Below the pieces are notes generated by a model. The model made no database searches and was not told the DNA's origin. It saw nothing but the letters and a program-made list of their open reading frames with translations. A program made the position numbers and the translations under genes. From the NCBI GenBank assembly GCA_000004985.1, contig GG738896.1: a stretch of 64,000 nt of DNA. One strand, given 5' to 3'. This DNA comes from Naegleria gruberi. Taxonomy: Eukaryota. Shown here piece by piece: positions 37,114 through 55,183 of the stretch (within the stretch, counting starts at the first letter, position 1; each line of letters opens with the position of its first letter).

Positions 37114-39310
37114 ATGTCTCAAAATCTTTGTAATCTTCCCTCTCGAACAGGGCATTCTTGTGTGTTGTACAATAGCCATCATCACAAGAACAATTGTGTA
37201 TACATGTTCGGAGGAACTCTTTCCGATCAAAAAACATTTCCTTCCAATGATTTGATTGAAATTAATGTTGAAAATCAGGAATGGAAGGAATTTGAAAATT
37301 CAAAAGCTTCACCAGGTCCTCTCTTTCATCATTGTGCTTGTTTGCATAAATTGGAAAATCATGATGATAATGAGATGATCATTTTCGGAGGGAAATCAAA
37401 AAAGAAACATTTGCAGAACAAGGTTTGGAGCTTTAATTTCTATAGGAAGGAGTGGAAGTGCTTGAGCGAAGGAGACAAGATGGTATCGCCACGATTTGGT
37501 CATTCGGGTGTAGTTTTTGGAAATACTTTATTTGTTTTTGGTGGATTGGATGAGAAGAAGAAATTATGTAGGAATGAATTGATTGCTTTCAATTTGAAGA
37601 GCAAGCAGTGGAAATTAATTGAAATGAGTGTTTCTATTAGTGGGAGATGTCACCATGCAAGTGTTTTGGATCCAGAGAGTGGTGATTGGTATTTATTTGG
37701 TGGGCAATCTGGAAAGAATGTGTTGAATGATTTTGTGAGAATTAAGTTATCGACCTATGATGAAGGAGCTGCAAAATGTGAATCAGAAACTTTAATTTCC
37801 GATTTGAGTGAAGAATTTTCAAGATTTGGACATTCTATGGTGTTGGAGAAATTCGAAAGTGGATTGAAATTCTACTCAATTGGTGGTTATAATATGAAGA
37901 AGGATTTTTTGGATTGTGTTTCTCTCGATTTGAATAATATTTCAAAAGGATGGCAGATTGAAACTGAACATACTCTTTCAAAAACCTTTGAAAATGTCTC
38001 TCAAGATGTTGGACCTGTATTTCATGTCACTACCCCAATTATTATTACAAAAGAAAACGAAACAATTTTAACATACTTTGTATTTGGTGGACTTTATGAA
38101 AATACTAAACCTCCAAAGACAAAGGAAAAAATCAAGAAAGAAGACATTAAGAAAAAGTCAAAACTGCCCGAGTTTGATATTATCAAATTTGAAAATGAAC
38201 TCAATGATGATATTTTCAGATCTATTCTATCATTTTTGAGTATTCCAGATTTACTGAAATTGGAATTGGTTTGTAAGAGATTGAGAATTTGTAATCTCAC
38301 TACAGAAGATGAATTCTGGAAGGCGTACTATCACGACAGAATTAACTGGCTAAAAGAGGCAAGCAACACCACTAAATTGGAATTCAACAGTCAAACAGGA
38401 ACCTATGACACTATCATTGTTCCTTCTACTTTTTATGATACCTATCTTGATTCCAATAGTGATTATAAGAGGCACTTTGTTGAACTAATTGGAGATTTAA
38501 TGAAAGAAGCTGATAAGAATACAAACGAAAGATTAAACCTGATTAATAGGCTCCCAGACATTCCAAAGTATACTTTTAGAACTAGAGAAGAGGTTATGCA
38601 ACATGAATTACAACCTACTGTCAAGAGTGATATTAAGGTAGTTCTGATAGGTATGTAACTTCTAATAATTTCAATTTAATATTTGGTGATAGGAAATGCA
38701 GCTATAGGAAAGACATGTTTTTATCAAGCATTGAGGGGTATTCCTTTGGAACTTGATTACATTCCAACAGTTTTTGATAATTACTCAGTACAATGTCACA
38801 GTGAGGATGTTACTTTCAATATTGCTCTTTGGGATACAGCTGGACAAGTATGTTATAATGTTTGAATTTCTCTAACAACTACAATTAATTTTGGAATAGG
38901 CTGACTATGATAGACTTCGACCCCTTTCGTATCCACAGACGGATATATTTCTTGTTGGTTTCTGTTGTCTTTCTGAATTATCAATGAAAGAAACCATCTA
39001 TAAATGGAAAAAGGAAATAGAAACCTATATGCCAGATATAAAATTGCCAATCATTCTCATGAGCACAAAGATTGATTTAAGAGACGATCCAGTGCAGAGT
39101 AGAAAACTTTTAGTGACAGAAATGAAAAAGCCAATATCCTACCAAGAAGGTGAATTGTTGGCTAGAAAGCTTGGATGTGCAACATATGTGGAAACTAGTG
39201 CTTTGACAAATGCTGGAATGGATCGTATTTGTGAATTGATAATCAAAACGGTAGACCTTCACCGTTGTGGTGGAATCACAAAGAATGGAAAGAAGTGTCT
39301 AGTTCAATAA
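37114..39310 (+). CDS. Kelch-repeat / F-box / Rho-family GTPase fusion protein with CAAX end (3 exons: 37114-38650, 38693-38847, 38900-39310)
   Basis: Exon 1 carries Kelch blades (MFGGT, IIFGG, FVFGG, YLFGG), an F-box (DDIFRSILSFLSIPDLLKLELVCKRLRI) and the start of the GTPase (KVVLIG). Intron GTATGT at 38651 to the AG at 38691-92. Exon 2 is NAAIGKTCFYQ...ALWDTAGQ. Intron GTATGT at 38848 to the AG at 38898-99. Exon 3 is [21 protein letters not shown]...STKIDLRDD...ETSALT and ends in CLVQ (CAAX). Phases are consistent (1, 0). Confidence 0.75.
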
Positions 39311-39640: not shown

Positions 39641-40600
39641 TTACATCAAGCCACAATTTGATAATATTGAAGTATTTTGCTTATTAATAACCTCCTTAAT
39701 GTAGTATCCATTTTTGCTTTTAGGAAAGCAAGCTGATTGAAAAAGAGCAAACCAAAAAGGAACATAACAATGTTCTACCTTCATGTCACCTTCCACAAAT
39801 ATTGACTTTTCAAATTGTAATGCCTTTTTCACAGCCTCTCGGTCAATAACTGGTTTTCCATTCCAAATTGGATTCAAATTCACAATTATTCCCAAATTCT
39901 GCAAATTCTTATTGTCTCTCAAATAAGAAAACCATTCGTCCAATTCATCAAATGAATGATGACCCATTGAAAAACATGTGATAATATTGATGGATGAAAT
40001 ACACTCTGTTTGATCGGATATATTATCTGAGAATTCATTTTTCTGAATGAACTCTAAATGACCATGGTAGTATTGAACTGGACCATCATAAATATTTCTA
40101 TAATCACGGAAACGAATAATTGAACCCAACCTTGAAGGACCAAATATTGGCATTCCAACTTTTACAAAGTTTAAGCTTTCAGTACATTCCAAATTTGGAA
40201 AATTGGAATTTTCATAAAGTATTGATCGGTAGAAATTCAATAAAGTGAATTTTGAATGATCCAAAATTTTCAACAAATTTGTTTTGGATTTTTCCAATTC
40301 TTTTTTCAAACAACATTCATACGACAATTCCAATAAATAAAATCGCATAAAATATTTCACATTTCCAATCAATCGAATCCTATTTTCAATATTTTTGCTC
40401 TTACTATTAGTATTCGATTCGAATATAAATGAAATTCTAAAATTACATTTAAAATTATTGTAAAATTTCATAATTTCATCGAAAGAAACAAAACACCTCC
40501 CGATCAATTGATAAATATTCCTATCAAGTGTCAGCAGTGAAGCCAAAACATCAATCGGAAGCATAAACTCCACCACAAGACCCCAAACATCTTGATTCAT
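39641..40600 (-). CDS. Hypothetical protein with F-box-like N-terminus
   Basis: 319-codon ORF from a real ATG. VWGLVVEFMLPIDVLASLLTLDRNIYQLI resembles an F-box. Confidence 0.5.
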   Translation of the reverse strand: MNQDVWGLVVEFMLPIDVLASLLTLDRNIYQLIGRCFVSFDEIMKFYNNFKCNFRISFIFESNTNSKSKNIENRIRLIGNVKYFMRFYLLELSYECCLKKELEKSKTNLLKILDHSKFTLLNFYRSILYENSNFPNLECTESLNFVKVGMPIFGPSRLGSIIRFRDYRNIYDGPVQYYHGHLEFIQKNEFSDNISDQTECISSINIITCFSMGHHSFDELDEWFSYLRDNKNLQNLGIIVNLNPIWNGKPVIDREAVKKALQFEKSIFVEGDMKVEHCYVPFWFALFQSACFPKSKNGYYIKEVINKQNTSILSNCGLM

Positions 40601-44934: not shown

Positions 44935-47508
44935 ATGATGTTTACAAGACAAACTGCCAGAAAATCAACTGGTGGAAAGGCACCTCGCAAACAAGTTGGT
45001 TCAAAATCAGCTTTAGGATTAAATTCTTCTAATGCGAGAAAATATCAAATTAATATTAGCGAGTTGAAGGCTAAACATCAACAGCAACTTTCTGATCAGA
45101 ATAATTATAATTTGAATGATGACGCTGATTTGAAGAAATTTATTGATGATCAATATGAAAATTGTGATGATTTGGTTAAAAAGTGGATTCACGATGATTT
45201 GGTCAATCAAAAAGAGGAGATTCAACAATCGGATAGTGATGTAGAGCTTGATACAAGATTGTTGAAAGAATTGGATGAAAATACCAAGTTTGAAATTTTG
45301 CAATTCATTCCAACATTTTCACCAAATGTTGCCAATCAGTCCTTGACTGAAGAAAGAAATATTGAAATGAATCTCGATACTGAATTGATTAGATTTCACA
45401 AAATGAGATTAATTAACAAGAGTTTCAACAAGATTATGATGAAGAAAATTCTCACTCTCAAACATATTACCTTGAAAACTGCTACCAACACTTTAAATTA
45501 TATTAGTTTGCTCTCTATTGCTCAGAAGGCATACAAACAAGCAATGATGATGAACTCGAACCATGATCTAAATATTGATAATGTTTTATTATATAACCCT
45601 TATTCATCAGTAGAAATAGTTGACAACAACCAAAGTTTTGGTTTCAATAACTTTGGTGGTTTTTCAACAGGTCTCAATAGCTTTGGTGGTTTCTCAACAG
45701 GATTTGGTACTTTCGGTACTACAGCAAGCAGTATACTTCAAAACACCAATGAAATCCCATCCGATTCGAGAGAACTAATTTCTGAAGATTCTGAGGATGA
45801 GCTTATTGCAAAATTGTATTTAAAGAGAGAGGACAAGAAAAATCCCCAAAAAGTAGATATTGATTACATGCGTGAAGAGGTTTATTTATACACACATGCA
45901 TCACATACCACTTCTCAAAATCAAAGTAGTTCATATCCACCTGTTATTATGACAGTCAATGAAACTATTGAAACTTTAACTTTGGTAATGGAAGATCAAT
46001 ATCTAGCCAAAGATATTGTAGGGTTTTTTTCTAAATTGAAAAGACTTAATATTTTCATGAATAATGCAACTTTTTATTACGGAGAAGTATTCAACTTGGC
46101 TTCAGAATCTCTAGAGGAAGTTTTAGTTTGTGGTGCTGGTTTGTTAGAACTTCTTATCAACCAACCATATTTGCTAAGCTCTTTTTCTGGGGCTTCTTGT
46201 CCAAAGATGACATCAGTTACATTTTCTCCTCTACTTCCAAATATTTATGCACCAGAAAATATTCTTGATACCTACTTTTCTCAACTACAAGTCACTAATC
46301 CAACCATCCACAAGCTTAATATTTATGATAAGATTGGTAGAAATGAATCCGCATTTATCAAATCTGAAGTATTTACCACTACCAATCCTGTTCAAAGAGA
46401 GCTAAATGTTTACTGTGTTCAATACAAGTCACTTGTAAACATTGATATCTTGGAGGAACTCTATGATATATTTGGAGACCGTTTCGTGAAAACCGTAATG
46501 CCATTCATGATACTCGGATATAATTGCCCTGTAACATTGGAACATGACCAATCACTTTGGAAATCTCATTTTGTGGAACACATGAAAAAGTTCAAAGATA
46601 CTGCAAATTACTTGTTCAAGAAGAGGAAATTTCCTGTTTCAAACGTGTTGCTTTCATTTGACATTATGACAAATAATGTTTTAGAACAGAACATCAAGGA
46701 CAGCAAATTACAATACCTCATATACCTATGTAACCAGTATCAAAATTCTAAACTTTTAAGCTATCTACCTGAAAACAAACAAACTCTATCAACAATTATT
46801 GCCTCAATTTATAGAGGATGGAATTTCACAAAATATACAAATGATCTCTTGGAATTCTTTGTTAGAGCCTTTTTTCACAGAGGAGTTTCTGCCATGTTAC
46901 ATAACTTTAAGTATGATGAAAAATTTATTGTATCTCAAATTGAGTATTTGGCTACTAGTTACACGATTAGTTCTACGATTAGTTCTAGGGCCGTTATTAC
47001 TGAGATAATTATCCACCTCTTCAGAAATAACTCAAAGGTTCTCTACTCTCTTCTTGCAAAACAGGTGGAAGTTTCTGATAATAACACTACATTTACAATT
47101 CCATTTATTGCCTTCCTCTTCGGAAAGGCAGATTGCTATTTAATTGCTAAACTATTTAATGAAATGGACATGGAAACATTCAATTCTTTAGGTCAAAACA
47201 ATAGAGGCGACAACATTCTCCACATTTATGTTTACTTTCAACAAGAATTTAATTACCTCATCTTTTATTCCATACTAAACAAGAATCCAAACTTGATTAA
47301 CATGGTCAATCACAAATTGCAAACTCCGCTTCATTACTTGATGACACTAAATGACAAGAGATCACCTCTTTTACTTCCAGAAATCAATCAACTTCTTAAA
47401 CGTAATAATATTTTGTTAGATATGAATGTTACCGATTATATGGAACAAACTCCTATGAGTATTCTTAAATCAGAAGAATATGAACATGAAGATATCATGT
47501 TTGAATAA
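44935..47508 (+). CDS. Large FG-repeat / ankyrin-repeat protein whose N-terminus mimics the histone H3 tail
   Basis: MMFTRQTARKSTGGKAPRKQ: residues 5-19 of histone H3 (QTARKSTGGKAPRKQ) are identical and T3 is kept. A second ARK triplet (SNARKYQ) follows. No histone fold. Mid-region FG repeats (FGFNNFGGFSTGLNSFGGFSTGFGTFG). C-terminal ankyrin-like repeats (GDNILHIYV...LQTPLHYLM). 857-codon uninterrupted ORF. Confidence 0.7.
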   Translation: MMFTRQTARKSTGGKAPRKQVGSKSALGLNSSNARKYQINISELKAKHQQQLSDQNNYNLNDDADLKKFIDDQYENCDDLVKKWIHDDLVNQKEEIQQSDSDVELDTRLLKELDENTKFEILQFIPTFSPNVANQSLTEERNIEMNLDTELIRFHKMRLINKSFNKIMMKKILTLKHITLKTATNTLNYISLLSIAQKAYKQAMMMNSNHDLNIDNVLLYNPYSSVEIVDNNQSFGFNNFGGFSTGLNSFGGFSTGFGTFGTTASSILQNTNEIPSDSRELISEDSEDELIAKLYLKREDKKNPQKVDIDYMREEVYLYTHASHTTSQNQSSSYPPVIMTVNETIETLTLVMEDQYLAKDIVGFFSKLKRLNIFMNNATFYYGEVFNLASESLEEVLVCGAGLLELLINQPYLLSSFSGASCPKMTSVTFSPLLPNIYAPENILDTYFSQLQVTNPTIHKLNIYDKIGRNESAFIKSEVFTTTNPVQRELNVYCVQYKSLVNIDILEELYDIFGDRFVKTVMPFMILGYNCPVTLEHDQSLWKSHFVEHMKKFKDTANYLFKKRKFPVSNVLLSFDIMTNNVLEQNIKDSKLQYLIYLCNQYQNSKLLSYLPENKQTLSTIIASIYRGWNFTKYTNDLLEFFVRAFFHRGVSAMLHNFKYDEKFIVSQIEYLATSYTISSTISSRAVITEIIIHLFRNNSKVLYSLLAKQVEVSDNNTTFTIPFIAFLFGKADCYLIAKLFNEMDMETFNSLGQNNRGDNILHIYVYFQQEFNYLIFYSILNKNPNLINMVNHKLQTPLHYLMTLNDKRSPLLLPEINQLLKRNNILLDMNVTDYMEQTPMSILKSEEYEHEDIMFE

Positions 47509-47659
47509 TTGAAACTTAATGATAGCAAGCATTTCTTCCAAGCTAATAAAATTTTTACAGTAAGGATTTCATGTATTTAATTGTTTGTTGGGCAACCAGA
47601 ATTAATCGATTAATTTTACACTTAAAGGAATCCGCAAACCAATAATGAACCAAAATGAA

Positions 47660-47730
47660 GTGCATTAGCCGGGAGTCGAACCCGGGTCACCAGCTTGGAA
47701 GGCTGGTATGATACCGTTACACTACTAATG
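47660..47730 (-). tRNA. tRNA-Gly (anticodon TCC), copy a
   Basis: 71 nt. GCATTAGTAGTGTAACGGTATCATACCAGCCTTCCAAGCTGGTGACCCGGGTTCGACTCCCGGCTAATGCA. Anticodon arm CCAGC-CTTCCAA-GCTGG. Confidence 0.9.
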
Positions 47731-47912
47731 CTTTCTTGGTTAATTCATTCCTTAATGTTCACGATTAAGCACGATATCCCATTCTGTTTATTCCTTTTTA
47801 ATCAATTTCTGGAACTTTCATTCTTAATTCGAATTGAACATAACGGTACTATAGCATTAGGCCTACTATTCTTGAATTCTCCTGGAGGGAATTTACATCC
47901 CATTTAAAAACA

Positions 47913-49165
47913 ATGAAAGCAAAAAAATTTCAAATCAGTAAAAAAAAAATGGAGCTATTGGAAGAATCATGCTTGCTCTCAGTGATTAATCTTCCAAAAG
48001 AGATTTGGCTCTATCAAATATGTGAATATTTAGATATTCTTGATATGATTTTTTCGCTGGGGAGAGTTTGCAAAGCATTTCGATATGAATTGGCAAACGA
48101 ATATCTTAAAAAATTCCCAAAAACAAAAAAGAAGGATTCGAATGATCAAGTCAGTTCGATAGATAGCTTTTCAATGAGAAGAGTGAAATATATTATCAGA
48201 GATGAATTACTGAAATTTATTGTAAAGTTTGAAAAATCTCTGACGAATGAAGGAATTTTCGAAAAGAAGGACACGAGCCATGTATCAGAACAGTCCAATG
48301 CTCAACAAAATGATCCAAAATCAACAAATGGTGGTCCCACAATAGAAAAAGAACGTTTAATGGAATTATTCCAATCAAGAATGGAAATATTCGACTTTTA
48401 CTTTTCACATTTCTATAAGAAATTACCAAGTGACGCTAGTGAATCAGCTATCAAGCAAACTTCCATTGCTTCTTCCCTATTTAAATCTGAAAATCAATTA
48501 GTTGAATCCTCATCAGCAAGAAACACTGAAATGAAAAAGATTTTGATTATCGGCAATGGTGGAGGTAAGTTTTCATTGTTAAATATTTCTCTAAATATTT
48601 AAAGTTGGAAAAACAACATTTTGCAGATCAATGCAGGATTTACCACTAAACGATAACCGAAATCTACCAACTATTGGTTGTGAAATCAACTCTTACCGAT
48701 TGAAAATTGCCGGTTTGGAAGCAAATATTAATTTATGGGATACAGGTATGTTCCACACTTTTTAATTGAGATTTTTATTAAAATCAAACAGTTGGTCAGG
48801 AAAAGTTTGGTTTTCTTAGAGATACCCTTTATGTGAATACTTCAGTGTGCATCATTTGTTTTGATCTTACCAGTAGATATTCCTACAAATCTATTCTGAA
48901 TTGGTTCAGGGATATCAAAAGAGTGGAACCTGAATGTGAAGTGATATTTGTCGGAACGAAACTAGATCTAACCGACAATCTGAAAGTAACACCCAAGCAA
49001 ATTACTTTTCCAATTAACAAGTATTGTCCATATATTGGATTGAGTAGTCTTCAACAGATTAATAATAGAGCAGTGTTGTGGTATGTTGCTTTTATGAATC
49101 TGTTTGTTTCCCATTTGAAAGGTATTCATGAAACTCTCATTTGTGATAAAGAAACAATAAATTGA
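47913..49165 (+). CDS. F-box / Ran-like small GTPase fusion protein (3 exons: 47913-48564, 48605-48745, 48792-49165)
   Basis: Exon 1 has an F-box (LSVINLPKEIWLYQICEYLDILDMIFSLGRVCKAFRY) and ends KKILIIGNGG at GTAAGT 48565. A 40-nt intron precedes exon 2 (VGKTTFCRS...INLWDT), which ends at GTATGT 48746. A 46-nt intron precedes exon 3 (VGQEKFGFLRDTLYV...VIFVGTKLDL...). The Ran-like pattern is GDGGxGKTTF...WDTAGQEKFGGLRD. All phases are 1 and consistent. Confidence 0.7.
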
Positions 49166-49263
49166 TTTAGACTTACCTTAGTGTGGAACATTAAGGTTTT
49201 ATAATAAATAGAATGAGATATTGTGCTTAACCGTGAATATTAAGGAATGAAATAAGCAAGAAA

Positions 49264-49334
49264 GCATTAGTAGTGTAACGGTATCATACCAGCCTTCCAA
49301 GCTGGTGACCCGGGTTCGACTCCCGGCTAATGCA
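49264..49334 (+). tRNA. tRNA-Gly (anticodon TCC), copy b
   Basis: Identical 71-nt sequence to copy a, in opposite orientation. About 50 bp of 5' flank and about 35 bp of 3' flank are also conserved with the other copies. Confidence 0.9.
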
Positions 49335-49960
49335 TTTCCTTTTGATTCTTGGTTTGCAGATTCCCTTATTATTGTTACTGTGGTACTTAAGCAAATGAAA
49401 ATTTTCTCGCGAAAAAATATATATTAAAATACTTCAATACTCTTCTTTGACTCCTTTTGCATATTGGATTATGAACTTTGATTACCATTATTGGTGTTGA
49501 TGTCTAATGGTGAGCTAGTTGAGGGATTGTCTCTTTCAAAATGTGATATTGAGCATATTCATCCTTAATAGAGAGATACCAAGCCGAATCAATTGGCCGT
49601 TCACACACTTGTAAGCATTATTAGACCGTTAGTAGTACATGTACTTGATAAACATGGTAACTAATCGATTGGATTGTTAGTTAAACGAAACTGCTCACAA
49701 CCCATCAAAATATTCGAAAGGTGAAACAAACATCATTTCTGAAATATAGCACGTTTCTTTCGGCGATTTCACATGCATTATTTTGTGAGAACTTTCTATT
49801 TAAGTGCAACATCTTTTTAAATGGAAAGTGATGCCCGAGATGAAATCTCTGAAAAAATAGGTTACTTTCCAATAATTGAAATTTGTAAACGAAAGCACGA
49901 ACAATAACTTTCCACCTGAACCACACAAGAATCTCTTAAAAAAAACAATAACACCCAATC

Positions 49961-52760: not shown

Positions 52761-52984
52761 TCGAATCCTAAGCTAATAAGAATCAAAAGGAAGTGCATTA
52801 GCCGGGAGTCGAACCCGGGTCACCAGCTTGGAAGGCTGGTATGATACCGTTACACTACTAATGCTTTCTTGCTTATTTATTTTCAACCGTAATGTTCCGG
52901 ATTAAGGGATGCAATATTTTCAATAATTATTTATTTCAATAATCTATTATTCAATTAAAAGTGGAATGACATGTCAGAGAACTT
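52703..52984. repeat. 282-bp segment (last 58 nt of the kinase CDS plus tRNA-Gly plus flanks), duplicated at 54902-55183
   Basis: About 95% identical direct repeat 2.2 kb downstream. The two copies bracket the F-box/LRR gene at 53035-54714. Confidence 0.85.
52794..52864 (-). tRNA. tRNA-Gly (anticodon TCC), copy c
   Basis: Identical 71-nt sequence, minus strand. Confidence 0.9.
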
Positions 52985-54901: not shown

Positions 54902-55183
54902 ATAGGGATGAACATGTGGCTTCAGCCAATTATGTCGCCAAGAATAATAAAAATAATTAATCGAATCCTAAGCTAATAAGAATCAAAAGGAAGTGCATTA
55001 GCCGGGAGTCGAACCCGGGTCACCAGCTTGGAAGGCTGGTATGATACCGTTACACTACTAATGCTTTCTTGCTTATTTATTTTCAACCTTAATGTTCCGG
55101 ATTAAGGGATGCAATATTTTTCTTAAAATAATTATTTATTTCAATAATCTCAATTAAAAGTGGAATGACATGTCAGAGAACTT
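54902..55183. repeat. Second copy of the 282-bp kinase-3'-end / tRNA-Gly segment
   Basis: Contains a 58-nt orphan fragment of the kinase CDS (DRDEHVASANYVAKNNKNN*) and tRNA-Gly copy d. Small indels distinguish it from the 52703-52984 copy. Confidence 0.85.
54994..55064 (-). tRNA. tRNA-Gly (anticodon TCC), copy d
   Basis: Identical 71-nt sequence, minus strand, inside the duplicated segment. Confidence 0.9.

Follow-up and report, generated by a model that had tools for sequence, protein, structure and literature searches.

We analysed a 64,000-nucleotide stretch of nuclear DNA from Naegleria gruberi NEG-M (contig GG738896.1 of assembly GCA_000004985.1; 32.5% G+C), referred to below as the window. 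The subject of this work is a gene on its forward strand, at positions 47913–49165, in which an F-box-like motif is followed by a small-GTPase domain (G domain) related to Ran; we call it the F-box-Ran gene. When the segments 47913–48564, 48605–48745 and 48792–49165 are joined, they give an open coding sequence of 1167 nucleotides (388 amino acids) that ends with a TGA stop codon at 49163–49165. Read from the second in-frame ATG, at 47949, the spliced product is 100% identical, across all 376 amino acids, to XP_002672613.1 (EFC39869.1; UniProt D2VTJ2), which is annotated as 'ran family small GTPase [Naegleria gruberi]' and whose whole coding region thus spans 47949–49165 (+). The upstream in-frame ATG at 47913 would add 12 amino acids, and the start at 47949 matches the aligned N-terminus of the paralogue XP_002677020.1. 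An earlier note on this DNA, made from its letters and open reading frames (ORFs), had placed the splice junctions at 48564/48605 and 48745/48792. Since the product is identical to the annotated protein, these are exactly the junctions of the public gene model. The JGI and NCBI gene models, which were made independently, also agree with each other.

Exon 1 (47913–48564, +) encodes, in a single ORF and one frame, the F-box-like motif, a linker of about 140 amino acids, strand beta1 and the first half of the G1 motif, or P-loop (..KKILIIGNGG). It is followed by intron 1 (48565–48604, +; 40 nucleotides, GTAAGT..AG, phase 1), which lies within the P-loop (GNGG/VGKT) and which, if retained, introduces an in-frame stop. 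Exon 2 (48605–48745, +) supplies the second half of the P-loop and switch I and runs through the sequence WDT, immediately after which lies intron 2 (48746–48791, +; 46 nucleotides, GTATGT..AG, phase 1). Exon 3 (48792–49165, +) extends from switch II to the C-terminus. The 40-nucleotide intron had been taken to join the F-box to the GTPase, but it actually splits the P-loop. The idea that a single spliced gene encodes both an F-box-like N-terminus and a GTPase derived from Ran is borne out by the agreement between the spliced coding sequence and the annotated protein, and as far as these two can tell, the F-box–GTPase fusion is confirmed as one three-exon gene.

The F-box-like motif and the G domain

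The N-terminal motif (amino acids 26–64, LPKEIWLYQICEYLDILDMIFSLGRVCKAFRYELANEYL; 47988–48104, +) was delineated by sub-threshold Pfam matches, profile–profile alignment with hhalign, a hidden Markov model (HMM) scan and conservation. The Pfam gathering cut-offs are 24.3 bits for F-box-like (PF12937) and 20.5 bits for F-box (PF00646). PF12937 was the best or only N-terminal family in all three members of the protein family described below, always in one register, with 21.7, 18.5 and 14.6 bits for the isolated segments, and a pattern LPxE...VCKxFR can be read directly in the motif. As a reference we aligned three crystallised F-boxes with four Naegleria F-boxes, leaving out the Ran-fusion family. 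Against this alignment the family profile was matched by hhalign in the canonical register, with LP paired on LP and VCK on V[CS]K (probability 67%, P 5e-5), and the score of the real profile was reached by 1 of 300 column shuffles. An HMM of the reference F-boxes was also run over 1345 six-frame fragments of the window. It returned its own training member and then amino acids 26–64 of exon 1 (E 2.6e-4; next fragment 0.083), making exon 1 the sole non-training match in the window.

The motif is also the best conserved segment between the two N. gruberi paralogues, at 90% identity; the G domain reaches 71%, and the first half of the linker 61%. Identity to the N. fowleri homologue is 43% in the motif and 48% in the G domain. 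We therefore regard the N-terminal motif as probably a real, albeit divergent and sub-threshold, F-box.

The G domain (amino acids 207–365; 48531–49093, +, a range that spans both introns) was defined by Pfam, PDB searches, alignment and Foldseek. Pfam Ras matches amino acids 209–358 with an E value of 6.5e-29. In a PDB sequence search the first 45 distinct matches were all Ran/Gsp1 (E 9e-28 to 2e-25), the best non-Ran match being Rac1 at 8e-18, with one more divergent GSP1 entry at 5e-18. Foldseek, run with a modest AlphaFold model (predicted local distance difference test score, pLDDT, of 70–88 in the G domain), likewise returned only Ran in its top 50. The alignment contains the Ran-type segments GxGGVGKTTF, EKFGxLRD (switch II), NWFRD.KRV and KQITF, and motifs G1 to G5 are all recognisable: the P-loop GNGGVGKT (48552–48615, +, split by intron 1) with GxxxxGKT intact, the switch I threonine, G3 DTVGQE (48739–48802, +, split by intron 2), G4 TKLD (48956–48967, +; NKVD in Ran) and a degenerate G5, SSL. 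The profile searches thus place the GTPase inside the Ran/Ras superfamily, as had been supposed. Together, the PDB ranking, the Foldseek result and the Ran-type segments argue that the G domain descends from Ran and is nearer to Ran than to other branches of the superfamily.

The domain has nevertheless changed considerably. Of 89 columns that are invariant in 15 canonical Rans, 46 are kept; the changes include D18N, A67V, N122T and A151S, together with the basic patch HRKK, which reads PINK in the window protein. G5 is SSL rather than the SAK of Ran. The protein ends with ...HETLICDKETIN soon after the last helix, whereas the canonical Rans in the alignment end with ...EDDDEF; the Ran C-terminal extension and acidic DEDDDL-type tail were looked for in this alignment and are absent. 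Judged by these comparisons, it is no longer a canonical Ran, having lost about half of the invariant residues and the acidic tail.

Several residues that had been singled out earlier can now be put in context. The segment FVGTKLDL had been listed as Ran-like, but Ran has NKVD, and TKxD is the pattern of the Rac gene in the same window. The GNGG P-loop had been called atypical; Ran reads GDGG[TV]GKT, GxxxxGK[ST] is intact and the sole change is D to N, which therefore gives no ground for expecting odd nucleotide handling. The A-to-V change in DTAGQ is real, and the alanine concerned is invariant across the 15 canonical Rans, but it is private to this copy, the other two family members having DTAGPE. 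An alternative splice acceptor that would restore DTAGQE was considered and rejected, there being no CT..GGTCAG acceptor near 48792.

A small family in Naegleria

The part of the linker spanning amino acids 147–200 (..FYFSHF..P.....S..S..F....QL..; 48351–48512, +) is conserved in the family alignment. The linker, which is specific to the family, gave no Pfam or PDB match and contains no known domain. An exhaustive representative search with the N-terminal 207 amino acids returned, besides the window protein, a single homologue; it is encoded on a Logan contig whose adjoining ORFs are identical to N. fowleri proteins. This homologue (L001, 910–2446) is XP_044556591.1 (FDP41_010098), a 'hypothetical protein' of 408 amino acids; this independent NCBI model is identical to our own spliced model of the contig gene from Met81 of the latter onwards. 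With the paralogue XP_002677020.1, for which we used the corrected model from Table S8 of Herman et al. 2021 (PMC8296547), it completes a tiny, Naegleria-specific family of three. Both relatives (69% identity for XP_002677020.1 and 38% for XP_044556591.1) share with the window protein the F-box-like motif, the conserved linker and a tailless Ran-derived G domain. They differ from it in having the P-loop GDGG[VI]GKT and G4 MKLD or TKSD, where the window protein has GNGGVGKT and TKLD. In XP_044556591.1 the interswitch region also contains an insertion, APISEDSNTRRSIKM, and the F-box-like motif is followed by a Ser-rich insert.

The N. fowleri gene encodes everything from the F-box-like motif through the linker and G1 to WDT in a single ORF without interruption. 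It has no counterpart of intron 1, and its only intron is at the same codon and in the same phase as intron 2 of the window gene, after WDT. Since the N-terminal extension and G1–G3 are thus encoded by one ORF, the possibility that the two parts belong to separate genes is excluded as far as sequence can do so. Because the homologue has the same architecture, the fusion can be taken to be older than the deep divergence of N. gruberi from N. fowleri. Outside the gene, the N. fowleri locus shows neither synteny nor DNA similarity to the window. A search of 5.8 billion proteins with a three-member profile gave no further family members, nor did a scan of JGI metagenomes with the N-terminal alignment. 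A word-indexed search with the N-terminal 207 amino acids missed even the identical protein, so that negatives from such an index need care; a full-length query and the exhaustive search both recovered the identical database protein.

Tyr39 and Gln69 both shape GTP hydrolysis by Ran, as part of the RanGAP mechanism. In the window protein Gln69 is retained and Tyr39 is replaced by Asn; in XP_002677020.1 and XP_044556591.1 Tyr39 is retained, but their DTAGPE has Pro at the position of Gln69. Since no member of the family (0 of 3) has both residues, we infer that hydrolysis regulated in the manner of Ran is not what the family conserves. Parsimony, applied to three taxa with Ran as the outgroup, does not decide whether Pro69 or Gln69 is ancestral. 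Ran Y39A is reportedly a studied mutant, and PDB entry 5clq (Ran Y39A) was among the Foldseek matches.

The gene, the fusion and its interpretation are already published, and no new kind of object is described here. In a re-annotation that covered every Ras-superfamily gene of N. gruberi and N. fowleri, Herman et al. 2021 (BMC Biol 19:142, PMC8296547; Additional files 4 and 10) already recorded this protein, and so the finding is not new; their Table S8 lists 'Ran - XP_002672613.1 - F-box'. Other rows of that table read XP_002677020.1* F-box and 'Rac - XP_002672610.1 - Kelch, F-box', and the term 'F-box' appears in it 72 times. The earlier suggestion of a lineage-specific family of F-box–GTPases accords with this large catalogued set, for which Herman et al. 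propose GTPase-dependent ubiquitination in Naegleria. They also describe dynamic birth-and-death evolution and GTPase pseudogenes, including an N. fowleri Ran pseudogene. In Table S8 the N. fowleri Rans carry no F-box flag, and a one-to-one orthologue of the window protein is not given. What the present analysis adds is, first, that the F-box of the Ran family is stated to be divergent and sub-threshold; second, the N. fowleri homologue, unflagged in Herman et al., which dates the fusion to before the species split; and third, that each family member is without either Tyr39 or Gln69. Literature searches for Ran-like F-box proteins beyond Herman et al. and TbFRP, a trypanosome fusion discussed below, found nothing relevant.

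Table S8 (PMC8296547) also lists N. fowleri Ran3 and N. gruberi XP_002677355.1 as divergent Ran paralogues, and Ran3 is annotated there with an N-terminal ubiquitin-hydrolase-like zinc finger (ZnF-UBP). The sequence of XP_002677355.1 has a Cys/His-rich N-terminal extension. Proteins of the Ran3 type would be a second, separate link between Ran and ubiquitin in the genus.

A second fusion and other features of the window

A further F-box–GTPase gene lies about 9 kb upstream of the F-box-Ran gene, as the earlier note had stated. It occupies 37114–39310 (+), with exons at 37114–38650, 38693–38847 and 38900–39310 separated by introns of 42 and 52 nucleotides, and encodes a protein of 700 amino acids comprising a Kelch propeller, an F-box, a linker, a Rac-type GTPase domain and a CAAX box (CLVQ). 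Pfam detects Kelch (1e-48), an F-box at 22.7 bits, above the cut-off of 20.5, and Ras (3.8e-31). The gene is probably that of XP_002672610.1. Given its CAAX box, the protein, a putative ligase receptor, would undergo prenylation and be attached to a membrane. It has DTAGQADYDRLRPLSY as its G3 motif and GNAAIGKT as its P-loop.

In a six-frame scan, the Ras-superfamily domains of the window were confined to these two genes. The proteins have only the G domain in common, at 31% identity; no homology was found between their linkers or the regions flanking their F-boxes, and the P-loop intron of the Kelch-F-box-Rac gene falls at a different codon. Since the G domains belong to different families, the linkers are unrelated and the P-loop introns differ, the two fusions are independent, as had been proposed. 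A shared origin was considered and rejected, homology being absent from both the linkers and the F-box flanks.

Between the two fusion genes, at 39641–40600 (-), is an ORF of 319 amino acids for which Pfam reports nothing at E<=0.1. By eye, its N-terminus, DVWGLVVEFMLPIDVLASLLTLDRNIYQLIGRCF, bears a faint resemblance to an F-box, but the F-box HMM scan gave no match there.

The window also contains four identical tRNA-Gly(TCC) genes, at 47660–47731 (-), 49264–49334 (+), 52793–52864 (-) and 54993–55064 (-), whose flanks are conserved for about 50 nucleotides 5' and about 40 nucleotides 3' of the gene. The first pair lies in a 146-nucleotide inverted repeat (47647–47792 and 49203–49348; 93% complementary) that brackets the F-box-Ran gene. 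Just upstream, at 44935–47508 (+), is a single-exon ORF of 857 amino acids whose start, MFTRQTARKSTGGKAPRKQVGSK, reproduces the N-terminal tail of histone H3 almost perfectly; it is matched by H3 peptides in the PDB (E 2e-6) and also includes an FG-rich stretch, FGFNNFGGFSTGLNSFGGFSTGFGTFG. A histone fold is absent, no Pfam family matches at E<=0.1, and the product of the ORF may be a large protein bearing an H3-tail mimic.

Possible function and comparison with known systems

The best explanation of the F-box-Ran protein, and one that we consider slightly better than an even prospect, is that it is a Skp1/SCF substrate receptor in which the Ran-like G domain serves as the binding module. The coupling to SCF is inferred from the sub-threshold F-box. 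According to this model, the N-terminal F-box-like motif would dock on Skp1, so that the protein would occupy the slot of the F-box substrate receptor in an SCF (Skp1-Cul1-Rbx1) ubiquitin ligase. The conserved linker would correspond in role to the post-F-box linker of other F-box proteins, and the G domain would stand in for the usual substrate-binding domain, be it WD40, leucine-rich repeat (LRR) or Kelch. Recruitment of partners by the G domain might depend on the bound nucleotide, but it is more likely that the domain is impaired in hydrolysis and acts as a binding module locked largely in the GTP state. Because the family does not conserve the catalytic residues and has lost the Ran tail, a module that hydrolyses GTP slowly and is bound to it most of the time seems to us more plausible than a fast switch driven by RCC1 and RanGAP. 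If correct, coupling of this kind would represent an unusually direct wiring of nucleotide switches to protein degradation.

Several observations weigh against this reading. The F-box Pfam score is under the gathering cut-off in every member of the family; the window protein reaches 17.4 bits with PF12937 (E 0.004) as a whole protein and 21.7 as an isolated segment, and 13.3–17.1 bits with PF00646. When PDB sequences were searched with a profile of the three N-termini, F-box proteins were not found, nor did a single-sequence PDB search with the N-terminus give any F-box match. As a control, a profile of the F-boxes from Naegleria Rac and Rab fusions matched almost exclusively F-box proteins in the PDB, Skp2 first (0.0017), with FBXO3, FBXL2, beta-TrCP, FBXW7, FBXL5 and cyclin F among the others. 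Since the search fails with the Ran family where this control succeeds, the Ran-family motif is clearly the more divergent. The AlphaFold models are of too low a quality to reveal the three helices of an F-box (whole-protein pLDDT 34 from the single sequence and 53 with a 20-row alignment); they draw the N-terminus as a single long helix with pLDDT <55. The private changes of D to N, A to V and Tyr39 to Asn could equally mean relaxed constraint. Finally, literature searches found no experimental work on any Naegleria F-box–GTPase.

A different view is that the F-box is there for the benefit of the GTPase. In that case the Ran-like domain would be a working signalling switch, and its tie to SCF would lead to auto-ubiquitination and a short life instead of making it a substrate receptor. 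F-box proteins are commonly auto-ubiquitinated, and the anatomy of the protein fits this view equally well. The same idea has been put forward for TbFRP, which is rapidly proteolysed (PMC3593210). It leaves unexplained why the linker is conserved and why the catalytic residues vary between members, and we think it rather unlikely as the main role, although a short-lived switch and a substrate receptor are not mutually exclusive and can coexist in one protein.

Somewhat less likely again is that the N-terminal motif is no working F-box but a family-specific helical extension, involved for instance in dimerisation or localisation, on a divergent Ran paralogue that has no link to ubiquitination. 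The sub-threshold scores and the failed PDB profile search described above would fit such an extension, as would the two one-residue insertions in the motif relative to the Pfam profile (36 residues on 34 profile positions) and the fact that Herman et al. flag no F-box on any N. fowleri Ran (PMC8296547). It is harder to reconcile with the fact that all three members match F-box-like, and no other family, in one common register, with the profile–profile P value and the specificity of the HMM scan, or with a readable LPxE...VCKxFR pattern in a strongly conserved segment.

The substrate-receptor model can also be made more specific. The Ran domain could be a hydrolysis-impaired mimic of RanGTP that is mounted on SCF by way of the divergent F-box and whose inherited Ran surfaces bind karyopherin-like proteins, or other partners of Ran, so that these become ubiquitinated. 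If true, this would provide a direct link from a GTPase to the ubiquitination of nuclear-transport or spindle factors in Naegleria; we consider this version more doubtful still than the helical extension.

It is very unlikely that the gene is a decaying duplicate that retains its reading frame but hardly any function, if any, and whose odd residues reflect early degeneration. The birth-and-death evolution and GTPase pseudogenes reported for Naegleria (PMC8296547) make such a fate conceivable, and D18N, Y39N and A67V are found in this copy alone, which keeps little more than half of the Ran-invariant residues. Against it, the frame of 388 codons is intact, the splice sites are canonical, identity to the paralogue is high in both the motif and the G domain, and the nucleotide-binding motifs are all recognisable. 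An annotation artefact, with the F-box and GTPase parts as separate genes or transcripts, is scarcely credible, given that the G domain starts within exon 1 in frame with the F-box-like motif, that N. fowleri has both parts in one ORF, that the tRNA genes 180 nucleotides upstream and 100 nucleotides downstream leave no space for further promoters or exons, and that the independent JGI and NCBI models agree.

Among known proteins, canonical Ran/Gsp1 is the best match in both sequence and fold, with G domains 40–43% identical. The likeness extends to the switch II sequence EKFGxLRD, to NWFRD and the switch I threonine, and to the absence of a lipidation motif. Unlike canonical Ran, the window protein is extended N-terminally by about 200 amino acids and has no acidic tail, and it is unlikely to take part in the RCC1/RanGAP/RanBP1 cycle.

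RhoBTB proteins combine Rho and BTB domains, act as adaptors of Cul3 ligases and have an atypical G domain. They provide a precedent for a small-GTPase domain inside a cullin-RING ligase adaptor, but they differ in working through BTB and Cul3 rather than F-box, Skp1 and Cul1, and in that their G domain is of the Rho and not the Ran type and is N-terminal. Naegleria also has RhoBTB (PMC8296547).

The other Naegleria fusions, of F-boxes with Rab, Rho/Rac and G-alpha domains (PMC8296547), resemble the window gene in several ways: the F-box lies upstream of the G domain, the linker is 130–150 amino acids long, the proteins are likewise lineage-specific and the same functional reading applies. The Kelch-F-box-Rac protein differs in having a Kelch propeller, an above-threshold F-box, a CAAX box and a GTPase domain from another family.

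In TbFRP (FYVE–F-box–Ras-like GTPase; Euglenozoa), a protein of discoban protists, a small GTPase likewise comes after the F-box, which was suggested to give rapid turnover (PMC3593210). TbFRP differs in its FYVE domain, of which Pfam finds none in the window protein, and in its Rab18-like G domain, and its authors found no N. gruberi orthologue (PMC3593210). The two are not homologous as fusions, and TbFRP is an independent precedent for joining an F-box to a small GTPase.

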